A stretch of 64,000 nt of DNA from assembly GCA_905178155.1 (NCBI GenBank), contig CAJINV010000007.1, forward strand, positions 1,705,341 through 1,769,340. Reading direction: 5' to 3'. The notes beneath the pieces are model-generated. The model saw nothing but the letters and a program-made list of their open reading frames with translations. It was not told where the DNA came from and did not search any database. The translations under genes and the position numbers were made by a program. Positions 5,814 to 63,600 of the stretch are shown here, piece by piece (positions within the stretch are counted from its first letter, which is position 1; the number at the start of each line of letters is the position of its first letter). This DNA is from Amoebophrya sp. A120. Its lineage: Eukaryota > Protista > Dinoflagellata.

Positions 5814-7389
5814 ATGGCCGCAACCGTGCAAAACTTTCCTCAGCAGCCTTTACAGTCGTATTGTTGACTCTGTCTTGTTCCCCCATGCACCCCCCCCCCC
5901 CGAAACCGAGTAAAAAAGTACTTTAATAAAGACTTGGTGTACTAGTCTTTAGACCCTGCTGCTGCTGCTGCTAGATCTATCGCTTTCGTCCTGCATTTCA
6001 TTTTCTATTTTTTTTTTTTTTTGAAATTTTTTTTTTTTTTTCGCGGACCGTTCTTCCCTTTTCGCAAGTTCTTTATTTGACCACTTGCTTGTTCAATAAA
6101 TTTTAATTTTTGTTTTATTATTTCACCCACTGCAACGGCCCAGGCCCACGGGACTAAGTTCTTACACGCTCAGCTGCGAGAAGACCCCCTTTCAATACTA
6201 AAAGACAAAATGGTAATTTCCGACCAGCTTGCGGAAGAGCTGGGGACGAAAATCACCACCGATTTTGCCCACCGGAAAACGGTGAAGCAACGGCGGGAAC
6301 TGGTGTCCAAAGTGCTCGTATGGATTGCAAAAATGTCTGGGTCTGGAAGATTGCAACTTGTCATGCTGAAACCGAATCATGCAAAAATCTGCGTTGCATG
6401 ACTGCCAAAAGCTGCCCACTTTCGACCAAGTTGGGCGGGAGTTTCTCATGCAGGATGGGCATGGCAGAGATCTCCCGGACTCTGTCATGCTAGGTCCCGC
6501 ATTCCAGACCTCATGGGTCATGGAAAACCTGCATGACAAGTTTGCATTCTTCCAGACCCAGACATTTTTACATTTGATAGCTCGGCCCGAAGGATGAGGA
6601 AACCGGGAAATTTCCGGACAAGGAGGTTCGGAAACTATCCTGAGTAAAAACGTACCCACACCAGAGTTGTAATGCAGATTTGCAAAGACAGGAAGACTTG
6701 TAATGCGCAACCCCATGACAGGCATTCTCAAGCGTGTTTGCGTTTGGGAGCTTGTAATACTGTAAACAGGATTAGCAGATCGATTTGTTATGCGGATTCC
6801 CTTGCTAAACTGCACTACAATACAGCCTGCAACTTGTCATGCGTGACTCACAAAACTCCTAGGCTTGTGTTGCAAAATCCTCATCCTGACTCTGGTGTGG
6901 GTACGTTTTTACTCAGGAGAGAAACTGGCGGTTATTCTGGTGCAAATAGCCGTGTACACGGGTAGTTTAGATAAGTTCCAGTCTTTGAAACGGGACGACA
7001 AAATGTCCATGAAGAAAATTGTGAACAAGATGGTGAACAACAAAAAAGACGGCGGGTTCCCGAAACTGTGCAACACCCTGTTCGAGTCTGGGCCGCCGTT
7101 ACCGCCCATAGTGTGGAAGTTGCGCGAGGCGCCGAAGCCGGTCGGATTCATGGCAAAGATGGCGAACAAACAATCCTTGAGCAAACAGTGCTCCCAGAGC
7201 CTGTTGAAGAGTGGAAGCACCGCATCGTTGGGCGATCTGGTGGTGTCTGCCGCGGCCGGAGACATGGCAAAGAAATTGGAAAGACGGCAGTCACAGGAGC
7301 AGGGCAGTCTGCTCGGAGGAGGTGCCGATGAACAAGTAGGGGCTCGTCCAGCAAGTCCGTCTGCTGGAGGAGCTCTCGGTTCGTCGTAA
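5814..7389 (+). CDS. Hypothetical protein, about 4 exons, interrupted by two TIR elements
   Basis: Removing elements 6319-6579 and 6636-6920 (each plus one TSD copy) gives continuous ...RELVSKVLGPKDEETGKFPDKEVRKLAVILVQ... to stop 7389. The first exon (ATG 5814, MAATVQNFPQQPLQ) is tentative. Confidence 0.6.
6319..6579. mobile_element. Introner-like TIR element, family B
   Basis: TAT...ATA ends; inverted repeat aaaaatgtctgggtctggaaga / tcttccagacccagacattttt; perfect TSD gctcg (6314-6318, 6580-6584). Confidence 0.9.
6636..6920. mobile_element. Introner-like TIR element, family A (orientation opposite to the other two copies)
   Basis: About 30-bp TIR tatcctgagtaaaaacgtacccacaccagagt (right end reads AGA); perfect TSD gaaac (6631-6635, 6921-6925); interior is the reverse complement of 16146-16424 and 40847-41125. 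Confidence 0.95.
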
Positions 7390-8432
7390 GAAGAAACATT
7401 TTTTTTTGCTGATGAAAACCTGGCTGCTGTTGACGAGAGTCAATTTCTTCTTGCGATGAATACGATGCAGCAACAAGAGCAGCAACGCCAAAAACTTTCT
7501 TTGTATGAGCAAAACGAATGCTTGAGCTCGTGTACCCCACGACGACGCTGAAAAAAAAATAAAAATTCATACAGCGGCTTTGATCTTCGTCTTCCAAGAA
7601 CACATCCAATTTTACAGACTTTCAAATCGAACACGCACGACATCGGAAGAACTCCAGCTGCATCGGTCTTCTAAAACAAAAGCAGCATTAGAGATCGATG
7701 AATTTGTTTCTCAGTGTCTCTTCATCAGGACGAGCGCTCCTTCTCGGTTCCAAAGTTCCTCCACTGACCTGGACTTCGGTTGGTTTGATATTCGTGTGAA
7801 AAAGGCAAATTCGGAAGCTATCTCGGTTGTGGTGTTTCGCACGCCCAGTTTCATTTTCCAGTCGGTTGTCGCATTTATGGTCGCTCGTGTACTTATCCAG
7901 TTCGTTCTTCTTCTCCTTCATTATCGATTCGTTTCGTGCAGGTGCTTTTTCGTTCCGAACAAGCATCCGTTTGTCAACAAACGGAGCGTCGCTAACCTAT
8001 TTCGTGGCAGAAACTTACACTTACTTCACTTTTCCATCAAGGGAAACAAGGAGTGCATATGATTTGACGCAATCACATGGCAGGACCTCAAGATTTCTCG
8101 TACCCATGATACTCAGTTTTTACGGATCACAACTACACTTTTACTTAGTTGCGTATGCGTTGAGCACTTTTTTGAATCACGGATGAAAGTCACCAGATTT
8201 TTATAGCCATGCATGTGGACACCGAGCTTCGTAGGAGTAGCAGGCATGCCCTTAGTACGCACTGGTAACTTGTTCTACCCGGCGTAGAAGCAAGCTGAAC
8301 CTGAAAGACGCAGACCTCACATAACCTTTACATCTAGCTCTTGCGTCCACTGAGCAAAAAATGCTTATTTCTACATGCTGCTAGCCTAAAAAAAACTTCT
8401 ACCCCCACCAGTATCTTCACAGAAGAGCCATC

Positions 8433-60666: not shown

Positions 60667-63600
60667 ATGGGTGACAATGATGGAGTCCATTACGGCGGTA
60701 AGTATGTCCCGCCGCATATGCGCAAGCGCAGTGCTGACCAACCAGCAAAGACTGTAAGTAGCAGTAACGCGCCGCAGCAGCTTCCTGAGAAGGAACACCA
60801 GCGCGACGAGCCTAGAGAGCGTGAGGACGGAAATCAAAACGGGTCTTACTCTAATTCGGGTAACGGGTCGTACACTCGTGGCGGTTACACGGAAGCCGAG
60901 TGGGAAGAATGGAATCGTGAGCAGGAGCAAAAAAACAACCGCGGAGGCGGAGGAGGCGAGCGTGGAGGAGGCTACGCCAACGGAGGAGGTGGCTCTAGCA
61001 ATTGGAACCGACCGGCGGGTGGCGGGTATTCATTGTTTTTCTAGACTTGATGTTTCCTCGGAGGTGGACCATGAGGTCTTGTGCATCCAGAATTTATTTT
61101 GATTTCTATTTTTCAATTCCATATCCTAGTTTTGTGTTGCGGGACATATGAGGAGCGGTAACACAAAAATCAATGTAATTTTGCAGTTTCACCGGCGGTT
61201 CCGGTGGTCGTTTCGGCGTGGCCGGCGGCCAGCAGAACAACGCACGCTGGGGCGGAGGTAACAACGAAGACTCCTACCAGAACCGTCGCCAGGTGGCCCG
61301 CAAGCAGGAGTCGCAAGACGGCGGCTATCACTGGAAAAAGTGTTAACGTTAACGGTTTTGATAGATTGCAAAACTGCATGACAAATTTTGCCTAGAATGC
61401 ATGCTATGCATGACAAATTTTGGCACGGTTTGGGATGCATTTCTGCATCACAAATTCCGTTAATGTTAACACTTTTTCCTGTGATAGCGGCGGAGAGAAT
61501 GTCAGTTATTCCAAGCAGGACATCCGCAACCGCGCCCCCGCTGGTTCGAACAACCGCAACAAGGAGCCCCAGAACTGGTTCGAGCGACCGGATTGCCGCC
61601 AAAACTATCCGCGTGAGCAAGAAGATGAGGACGAAATCTTTCCCAAGCGACAGCATCGAACTGGTATGCTCTATCCATTCGTATTGTTTCGTGTTGTACC
61701 GTTGTGGTGCTGTGGGCAAATAACTCTTTGGGTTTGTGTGCTACTGCTGCAAGTTGTTAGAAGATGCTAGCATAGTCTTGGTTTAAGTGTCATGATTTCC
61801 CTTCTTGTCCTCTAGCAGCGCAAGCGAGCCACGCAATGCAAACTCATCCAGGTATTAACTTTGACGACTATGACAAGATCCCGGTGGAGCGATCCGGAAA
61901 CAACTGTGAGGCTGCCGTTGCCATTTCTCGTTTCTCCGAAGCCAGATTGCACGACGACCTCTATGAGAACGTCACTCGCTGCGGGTAAGAACGCGGACTT
62001 ATTGTTATTTCAGTATGAATTTGTCGTGTCGCCATTGCGGGAACGTGTAGATTCAGCGCGAAGATCCTAAAGAATCATCATTTCCTCCACCATTTTTTCG
62101 TTGCACTTGCATTTTTTGAAAGATCGTGTCACAATCGAGGGGGCGCAACTACTAGAAGCACTTTCATTCGCGCCTTGTTCACACGACTCCACAACATTGA
62201 CATAAACATTCATTTATATGGCGTCGAAGCAGCATGAAATCAAGAGAGAAAAATATCGCAACAGGTACGACCGTCCCACACCGATTCAGAAGCATTCTAT
62301 CCCGATCGTCCGCTCCGGTCGCGACGGGATGTGCTGTGCCCAGACGGGTTCCGGTAAGACAGCAGCCTTCTTGATCCCGGCGATTCAGTCGCTTCTGGAC
62401 AAAGGTCCGCCGGGCCTCCCGGACACATACAATGCGAAGAGCCTGGTTGCCAGGTAAAAACTTCTTTGGAACATAATTGCACACAAACACAACTACCCCT
62501 AGCAGTTAGAAATAGAAATAGTTATAGTTTGATATTGGCACATGCGCTTCTTCATCGTACATGATCAAAGTGCTTTAGTTACTGCTTACCAGTGCTTTTT
62601 GTAGTTTCAGTTTGAGATGATTCCGATAATTATTTTCTTCTCTATATCAGAGTCGCCATGCCGATCGTCCTCGTTCTCGCCCCGACGCGAGAGTTGGTTT
62701 CGCAGATTTACGATGAAGCACGAAAATTCTGTTACAACACGGGAATTCGGCCGGCTGTGGTATACGGTGGCGCACCGCTCATGGACCAGAAGCGTGACGT
62801 GATGCGAGGGTAGAAGGCTACAATATGCTTTTATACTTGTTCATGTTTCGCTTTTGCTTCGAATCAATTCGATCTAAAGTTGAAGAAATGTAGTTGGCCA
62901 GGAGTAAAGTCTTGACATCAACAACAACCACAACCAGTGCTGGTTCTACTGGTACTACAGGTGAAAAAATGCACGACGACCCATGGCTGCCTCTGTTCAT
63001 CTTCTTGTTCTTGATTTACTATTTATTCATCTTCAATGAAAATAAATCGCAAACAACTCAGTGTGGACATTTTGGTTGCTGCCCCCGGTCGTCTTACGCA
63101 CATGACGGAGGCCGGTTGGATCAACCTTGGGTACACCCGCTACTTGGTCCTGGATGAGGCCGACCGCATGTTGGATATGGGGTTCGAACCCCAGGTCCGG
63201 CAGATCGTGGAGCACACGAACATATCACAAGAAAAAAGTGTTACAGTGACACATCTATTGCAACTTCAGCAACACAAATTTTCTCTGTGTGGCAGAGAAA
63301 ACTTGCAATGCAGAGATCCTAAGGGAAAACACATACGAAATGAAGCTCGGATGCATTTCTTGCATGACAAAGGTTGTCTGTCTTGCGGCTCCTGCAACGT
63401 AATGTGTAAGTGTAACACCTTTTTCTTGCGATAGAACATGGGCGAGTTCTACTACGGCAACCCGGAGTTCGACCGGCAGACCATGATGTTTTCCGCCACG
63501 TTTCAGGACGAGATCCAGATCCTCGCCCGCGACTTTCTCCACGATTACATCTTCTTGACCGTCGGCCGGGTCGGTTCGACCAACGAGTTCATCGAGCAGA

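Follow-up and report, generated by a model that had tools for sequence, protein, structure and literature searches.

We analysed a 64,000-nt stretch of the genome of the algal parasite Amoebophrya sp. A120 (contig CAJINV010000007.1, positions 1,705,341–1,769,340; hereafter, the window) and found that it carries a set of short inserts with terminal inverted repeats (TIRs) that are lost from transcripts as the element plus 5 nt. The inserts have fixed ends, a 5-bp target site duplication (TSD) and a strong bias toward coding sequence; they occur in either orientation, and their removal is scarless. The element system is real and has already been published for Amoebophrya A120 as introner elements (PMC7789003, PMC12130899). 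The informative junctions strongly suggest that the 5′ cut lies 1 nt before the TAT of the left end and the 3′ cut 4 nt after the ATA of the right end. Taken as a whole, we consider it likely that these are A120 introner elements, probably mobilised by one integrase-like DDE transposase and probably excised by a relaxed spliceosome that cuts at a fixed offset. Our additions to the published account are modest: the TSD is uniformly 5 bp in all families, −1/+4 is the likely register, and neighbouring copies cluster.

The window was scanned for TAT..ATA ends with matching 5-bp flanks and inverted ends. All 17 elements of 150–290 bp that a first-pass annotation had listed were present, from 6319 to 63433 (Table 1). 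Under strict criteria (TAT at one end and ATA at the other, 5-bp flanks duplicated without mismatch, and TIRs that match at 14/25 positions or more), 11 elements were recovered, compared with 1 hit in total over 20 local shuffles; the 6 further listed elements have an altered end or an imperfect duplication. A loose scan for TIR plus TSD returned mostly chance pairs. Three additional degraded elements, one recognised from an RNA joint (50640–50852) and two within a kinase gene (38811–39087 and 39947–40133), brought the total to at least 20. We also examined 142 related loci (L001–L142; 424 kb including overlaps), which were retrieved with one TIR pattern from one separate assembly and over-represent one element family; one exon tested from them was 98% identical to an A120 protein. 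The 265 elements in these loci were chosen by end profile and TIR only, and the TSD was not used.

Removal of the elements from transcripts

Two assembled contig sets from different samples of one study, X1 and X4, both labelled 'RNA?', behaved as transcripts: their contigs skipped GT-AG introns, and an intergenic island was without depth. Between 40700 and 60000, six of the six listed elements were skipped in both X1 and X4 by their length plus 5 nt (284, 155, 286, 224, 258 and 287), and the degraded copy at 50640 was skipped in X4 (218). Among the contig pieces at 6000–25900, length accounting showed the removal of four more elements (6319, 6636, 18509 and 25042); an X1 contig kept 51 letters between 6313 and 6921, as predicted if both 6319 and 6636 are lost with 5 nt each. 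One border each of 14780 and 17787 was visible in X4. No exon model fitted the 1124 letters between 14777 and 17982, the interval that contains 16146 and 17439. Two raw-read runs, X9 and X10, contributed 4 and 6 reads. These data uphold the earlier claim that removal is scarless, and they match the removal of non-canonical introns from transcripts that characterises the A120 introner elements.

A third run, X5, consisted of DNA-like contigs of flat depth. X5 contigs crossed 14780, 17439, 17787 and 18509 without gaps, and X5 depth was very high over the younger families, a value that is not a copy number. The presence of the inserts in DNA-like contigs and their loss from transcript-like contigs refute the idea that the host genes are pseudogenes or the inserts assembly artefacts; the spliced proteins are intact and conserved, the same families recur in a separate assembly, and we give this idea practically no credence.

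The splice register

The first-pass annotation had listed a series of non-GT-AG end pairs. A perfect TSD lets the cut slide over six positions, and the dinucleotide pairs listed were thus a choice, not an observation. The non-canonical ends were borne out; of the specific pairs, AA-AG at 17787 was excluded by an X4 contig, and several are probably in the wrong register. Mismatched TSDs make a junction informative, and we expressed the 5′ cut as an offset relative to TAT. The element at 58990 permits −1 only (intron 58989–59275, GT..CA) and is the sole junction that fixes the register alone. The contigs allowed −2 to −1 at 50640, −2 to 0 at 14780, 17787 and 18509, and −4 to 0 at 41180. The annotated A120 proteins, which their authors built from transcript and protein alignments, allowed −2 to 0 at 38811, −1 to 0 at 39947, and −5 to −1 at two sites in the related locus L076 (0 excluded). 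At 39947, a Leu present in 120 of 120 homologs demands −1 or 0, and the AG-ending option would give Val. All 10 informative junctions were compatible with −1/+4, and no other offset was common to all of them; if registers were uniform, the post hoc chance of this result would be about 0.0007, or 0.004 when agreement on any offset is counted.

In the −1/+4 register, the mRNA holds four TSD bases of the left copy and one of the right, and the TA of the element falls at intron positions +2/+3. This placement coincides with the GTA start of canonical donors, which was found in 20 of the 21 GT-AG introns placed in the window. The elements themselves do not follow the canonical U2 GT-AG pattern: GT-AG occurs in 1 of 20 elements at −1/+4, and 58990 is unambiguously GT..CA. 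A constant distance from the TIR describes the splice ends better than a dinucleotide list does. In Table S4 of Farhat 2021, all nine of the top non-canonical A120 pairs start N-T, a count that depends on the aligner (PMC7789003), and that paper reports no clear splicing signature. The dinucleotide counts of Gozashti 2025 have N-T at the 5′ end in 6681 of 9716 for family 2 (PMC12130899); we did not use this as support, because A-N is equally enriched at the 3′ end and the choice of aligner may cause both.

Several points weigh against a fixed register. The exact offset depends on a single unambiguous joint of low depth together with intersections, annotated proteins supply 4 of the 10 junctions, and X1 and X4 are assembled contigs, labelled with a question mark, that give the main form only. 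It is therefore conceivable, but in our judgement unlikely, that removal always takes the element plus 5 nt while the cut pair slides within the TSD and no single register exists, with the minor forms hidden in the contigs. In Farhat 2021, the legend of Fig. 3 describes splice sites that vary in position with respect to the hairpin, and the border is given as unknown (PMC7789003). Single TSD mismatches in the related loci were synonymous in 19 of 28 cases, compared with 39–43% expected with one purely intronic copy (p 0.002–0.008), and this excess is a hint of a sliding register. All TSD mismatches together (25 of 54 synonymous) nevertheless fit the fixed model (p 0.17–0.38), and their 46% is lower than the 66% that two coding copies would give at omega 0.2; an offset of −1 common to all 10 informative junctions also argues against sliding. 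Codon scores over 38 imperfect TSDs did not separate the registers, and no match was obtained when a fully informative junction was sought by protein search in the related locus L024.

Three canonical introns in the window (1741–2005, 43522–43808 and 62454–62650) end in ATA-TCAG, and two of them start with G-TAT, which is the geometry of the elements with canonical ends. The notion that canonical introns are canonicalised old elements was unsupported, as ATA stands at −7 to −5 in 3 of 21 only, too few to call.

Possible mechanisms of excision

The match of TA at +2/+3 to GTA donors would let normal donor recognition operate, with relaxed demands on the +1 G and the terminal AG, and because TAT is present at both ends, the orientation of an element would not matter. 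We regard excision by such a relaxed spliceosome as somewhat favoured. A120 retains U2, U4, U5 and U6 and 83 of 89 spliceosome proteins (PMC7789003). Two observations count against this reading: U1 small nuclear RNA was not detected in A120 (PMC7789003), and the elements showed no marked tendency toward the canonical bases (G occupied TSD position 5 in 43 of 137, and AG positions 3–4 in 13 of 137). Each of the two weakens a spliceosomal explanation.

Both observations would also suit a rather less probable route, in which the same elements are removed in the same register by a nuclease and a ligase. These would act on a TIR stem whose overhangs measure 1 nt at the 5′ side and 4 nt at the 3′ side, a scheme already put forward for the nonconventional introns of euglenids. 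Long stems form at the ends of many copies (in 7 of 20, z is below −7), and euglenid introns pair +4 to +6 with −8 to −6, a similarly asymmetric geometry (PMC11282704). The predicted terminal TAT/ATA pairing was absent, however, in the spliced elements at 50640, 58990, 17787, 39947 and 38811, which speaks for a signal in the sequence rather than a strict hairpin; degraded copies of this kind were removed in the same register, and stem-guided excision would leave to chance the agreement between TA and positions +2/+3 of canonical GTA donors. The euglenid pairing, moreover, joins CAG with CTG at +4..6/−8..−6, whereas here TAT and ATA stand at +2..4/−7..−5 (PMC11282704). Introns of Fritillaria borealis are likewise MITE-like (miniature inverted-repeat transposable element), with TIR, TSD and non-GT-AG ends, and are reported to be spliceosomal, although they have preferred ends of their own, AG-AC/AG-AT (PMC11282704). 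The terminal dinucleotides of the A120 elements are nearly free.

One rule might cover tens of thousands of seemingly motif-less A120 introns, a proposal on which we are evenly divided: irrespective of the bases at the ends, the cuts would fall 1 nt ahead of the TAT and 4 nt past the ATA. A spliceosome lacking U1 would recognise nothing but the TA at +2/+3 and a fixed 3′ distance, and any insertion of one integrase-like clade with a 5-bp TSD would be a scarless intron in either orientation. Should −1/+4 be true genome-wide, the 'great diversity of splice motifs' would amount to random TSD bases around a fixed geometry. A fixed register, if true, makes the question of how A120 splices its approximately 65% non-canonical introns testable.

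Ends, duplications and families of the elements

Of the 17 listed elements, 12 have a perfect TSD, a correction of the 11 counted at first, and the TSD carries 1 mismatch in three, 2 in one and 3 in one; with the degraded window copies included, it is perfect in 12 of 20. The consensus TAT[CG][CA]nnnGnAAA was found at the ends of 16 of the 17, the exception being 46982, which lacks the A run. Two elements had been said to differ by one end base, and this was confirmed (right end AGA at 6636, left end TAG at 17787). BLAST within the window gave three multi-copy groups, 6636/16146/40847 (87–89% identity, 6636 in reverse orientation), 6319/39147/17439 and 25042/41180/14780/17787, together with seven elements without a clear relative, 18509 and 58990 among them.

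In the related loci, the 265 elements formed 17 BLAST families, the large ones with n = 144, 46, 28 and 25. An exact 5-bp repeat flanked 208 of the 265, compared with 1 flanked by 4 bp and 1 by 6 bp, and the 5-bp TSD was valid in all four large families. The single rule for ends and TSD across families that had been proposed thus holds over the 17 families. The TSD bases were mixed, without a target motif. TAT..ATA was present in 254 of 265, and the ends shared G at position 9 (484 of 530) and AAA at positions 11–13; these end counts are partly circular, since the elements were selected by an end profile. The elements are short, with TIRs, a fixed TSD and no coding capacity, as are MITEs and other non-autonomous TIR DNA transposons.

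Neighbouring copies cluster. In L001–L142, 55 of 152 successive gaps measured 20–99 bp (peak 40–59), about 7 times the density at 100–499 bp, and the window contains close pairs with spacers at 6579–6636, 17728–17787 and 41125–41180. New insertions may favour the DNA beside an existing copy, for example in a nucleosome linker.

Several longer copies of 457–972 bp have perfect TSDs (L057:4017–4988, L036:3094–3724, L055:1310–1813, L035:571–1051 and L019:3307–3763) and contain 150–650 bp of internal DNA not found in short copies. They could be remnants of parent elements or captured DNA; nested elements were rejected as an explanation, since the internal DNA is unique. The longest, of 972 bp in L057, sits among exons of the RNA polymerase II largest subunit, and its internal frames gave no real Pfam hit.

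Possible mode of spread and the putative transposase

The copies would be non-autonomous and moved by cut-and-paste, with a DDE enzyme acting in trans and making a 5-nt stagger in the target; such an enzyme would belong to the IS3/IS481/Ginger/integrase group. An integrase-like enzyme is our best guess and seems reasonably probable, because TA..TA and TNT..AYA ends mark IS3EU/GingerRoot and IS481EU and because family 38 of Gozashti 2025 has Copia-integrase-like open reading frames (ORFs). Given the uniform 5-bp TSD, the missing transposase is best sought among integrase-like DDE enzymes. We filed the elements under none of IS3EU, IS481EU and Ginger2, because the TSD excludes the first two and the termini the third. 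Ginger2/TDD elements end in TG..CA, and the window elements in TAT..ATA. The 4–5 bp TSD of Ginger2/TDD is shared (PMC10045372). IS3EU/GingerRoot has the same TA..TA termini with a TSD of usually 6 bp, a repeat length seen in 1 of 265 elements here, and IS481EU has the matching TNT..AYA termini with a TSD of approximately 4, 15 or 25 bp, compared with 4 bp in 1 of 265 here, where lengths up to 10 were scanned (PMC10045372).

The search for the enzyme speaks against this scheme. No transposase was found in 32 ORFs of the window, in 120 of the 171 long ORFs (at least 200 aa) of the related loci, or in 12 frames inside the 972-bp copy, and Farhat 2021 likewise reports none in A120 (PMC7789003). 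Neither the window nor the 424 kb of overlapping loci yielded an autonomous, transposase-bearing partner, and viral contigs gave no match to the TIR pattern. Long copies encoding a transposase had been suggested as a check; long copies exist, and no transposase was found in the frames of the longest. Of the earlier claim of one transposase type, the shared end and TSD rule stood, and the enzyme itself is inferred.

It is also possible, though improbable in our estimate, that several unrelated transposases, or the integrase of an LTR retrotransposon acting in trans, spread the families, whose ends would be alike only because splicing selects TAT. Selection for spliceable ends is to be expected, and the A120 entries in the table of Gozashti 2025 are mixed, with a Mutator family of 8–9 bp TSD and Copia-like domains in some members (PMC12130899). 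This alternative does not readily accommodate a 5-bp TSD in all four large families, nor ends that share more than TAT, namely the G and AAA positions described above, with the same partial circularity.

Relation to published A120 introners

The first-pass annotation stated that introners with inverted and direct repeats had been reported in Amoebophrya, and this is correct for the same organism (Farhat 2021, PMC7789003). That paper describes the A120 inverted repeat as TAT, seven variable bases and at least 3 A, with direct repeats of 3–5 nt (5 bp in the legend of Fig. S19), and counts 29,850 repeated introns in 1,954 families, RNA-supported and MITE-like (PMC7789003). Our elements agree in organism label, in the TAT + 7 + AAA terminal inverted repeat, in a 5-bp direct repeat, in repetition within families, in RNA-supported non-canonical introns, in MITE-like structure and in the lack of a transposase, and host proteins are identical to A120 proteins. 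They differ in that Farhat 2021 has repeat length and splice position as variable or unknown (PMC7789003), whereas we found a uniform 5-bp TSD and a cut compatible with one offset, −1/+4.

Farhat 2021 had already described the TAT terminus, a 5-bp repeat, splicing at non-canonical sites and a MITE-like interpretation (PMC7789003), and none of these can be called new. The table of Gozashti 2025 also already labels family 38 'Ginger; 5-bp TSD, TA/TA termini', with the Copia-integrase-like ORFs, although that family lacks the expected Ginger termini and TSDs and most A120 families are given there as TIR DNA elements of unknown superfamily (PMC12130899). Its A120 TSD lengths, called automatically, run from 2 to 11 bp, with no cross-family rule in its 58 A120 rows, a comparison made by description only (PMC12130899). 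A fixed splice offset was mentioned neither in titles and abstract openings of the literature on Amoebophrya introns or on introners and Ginger, nor in text passages of Farhat 2021, whose Fig. 3 and S19–S25 may show it, as may subscription papers such as Roy 2023.

Host genes and coding context

The window genes comprise four cGMP-dependent kinases (PKG), a DEAD-box helicase, a KH-domain gene and others. The kinase paralogs lie at 1–4428, 8385–13739, 32362–35331 and 36640–41842. After removal of 8 GT-AG introns and 5 elements, the gene at 36640–41842 encodes 821 aa identical to an annotated A120 protein (P0121), and the model at 32362–35331 is an exact match to a protein bearing the label Amoebophrya sp. 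A120; these are the models PKG-C and PKG-D. The three other window paralogs have no intron at the five element sites of 36640–41842, and the elements in that gene are therefore gains. One kinase paralog is a single intron-free frame of 1784 codons, another has the five elements, and none was detected in the other two.

Taking out the element plus 5 nt gave an open frame on the + strand at each of the 17 sites and rebuilt the kinase motifs GVDWW and GHAPF, in agreement with the claim that loss of the element with one TSD copy restores the frame. In the related loci, the same removal gave junctions that scored as coding in 218 of the 250 with enough flank (controls: 83% at coding, 43% at random and 4% at non-coding positions), and removal with 5 nt outscored removal with 3 or 4 nt in 194 of 250. 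The elements had been said to lie always in coding exons. No intergenic element pair with both ends of at least 12 bits was present in the window, by a profile made from these elements; in the related loci, one perfect copy stands directly after a stop codon, in the 3′ untranslated region. The coding location is a strong bias, not a law, in a comparison of exonic with intergenic DNA that covers the window and the loci selected by TIR pattern.

Table 1. Elements of the window, with flanking duplications and the evidence for each
Feature	Position	Strand	TSD or flanks	Remarks
Element, 261 bp	6319..6579	.	GCTCG/GCTCG	Family of 39147 and 17439
Element, 285 bp	6636..6920	.	GAAAC/GAAAC	Right end AGA; reverse-oriented copy of 16146/40847 family
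Element, 191 bp	14780..14970	.	CTCGC/CTGGC	X4 piece stops at 14777; cut offset −2..0
Element, 279 bp	16146..16424	.	ATTGG/ATTGG	Sequence scan
Element, 290 bp	17439..17728	.	GAGTC/GAGTC	Sequence scan
Element, 192 bp	17787..17978	.	GAAGA/GAGGA	Starts TAG; X4 piece begins 17982; offset −2..0
Element, 200 bp	18509..18708	.	AGGGG/CGAGG	X4 joins 18506 to 18712, 205 skipped; GT-AG in −1/+4 register
Element, 150 bp	25042..25191	.	GCTGA/GCTGA	Two X4 pieces separated by 153 letters, as predicted
Degraded element, 277 bp	38811..39087	.	TTATC/TCGTC	Ends TAT..ATC; PKG gene; model equals annotated P0121
Element, 271 bp	39147..39417	.	TCCTG/TCCTG	PKG gene; scan and protein model
Degraded element, 187 bp	39947..40133	.	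CTGCT/GTGGT	Kinase subdomain I; homologs and P0121
Element, 279 bp	40847..41125	.	GTCGA/GTCGA	Interrupts GVDWW; joint 40841>41126 skips 284 in X1, X4
Element, 150 bp	41180..41329	.	ACGCA/GCGCA	Interrupts GHAPF; joint 41175>41331 skips 155 in X1, X4
Element, 281 bp	46982..47262	.	TTGCT/TTGCT	TIR without A run; joint skips 286 in X1, X4
Element, 219 bp	49630..49848	.	GTTGG/GTTGG	Joint skips 224 in X1, X4
Element, 253 bp	50307..50559	.	CGACA/CGACA	Joint skips 258 in X1, X4
Degraded element, 213 bp	50640..50852	.	TTCTA/CCGTG (1/5 match)	Joint 50637>50856 skips 218; X4 only, depth 3.3; offset −2 or −1
Element, 282 bp	58990..59271	.	AGAGG/AGCAA	Joint 58988>59276 skips 287, unambiguous; X1 depth 2.7, X4 depth 5.1
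Element, 161 bp, near-palindrome	61326..61486	.	GCGGC/GCGGC	DEAD-box helicase gene; frame open once removed
Element, 211 bp	63223..63433	.	GAACA/GAACA	DEAD-box helicase gene; sequence scan and frame

Other observations in the window

The genes at 14626–18835 and 22303–25945 are adjacent and alike in layout, carry six elements between them and may be tandem paralogs; a KH domain was confirmed by Pfam in the latter and recognised by eye only in the former. Two intergenic islands (19900–21500 and 54900–56500) have 66–67% GC, near-zero transcript-like depth and no mutual similarity. The GT-AG intron at 36846–37125 contains a 28-bp perfect-spaced hairpin at 37002–37058 (folding z −6.7 compared with shuffles), and this hairpin may represent another kind of small palindromic element. 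In the region 40700–44000, an X1 contig 3669 letters long runs from the kinase gene across the intervening gap into the next gene (43334 onward), reflecting overlapping transcripts, read-through or an assembly join.

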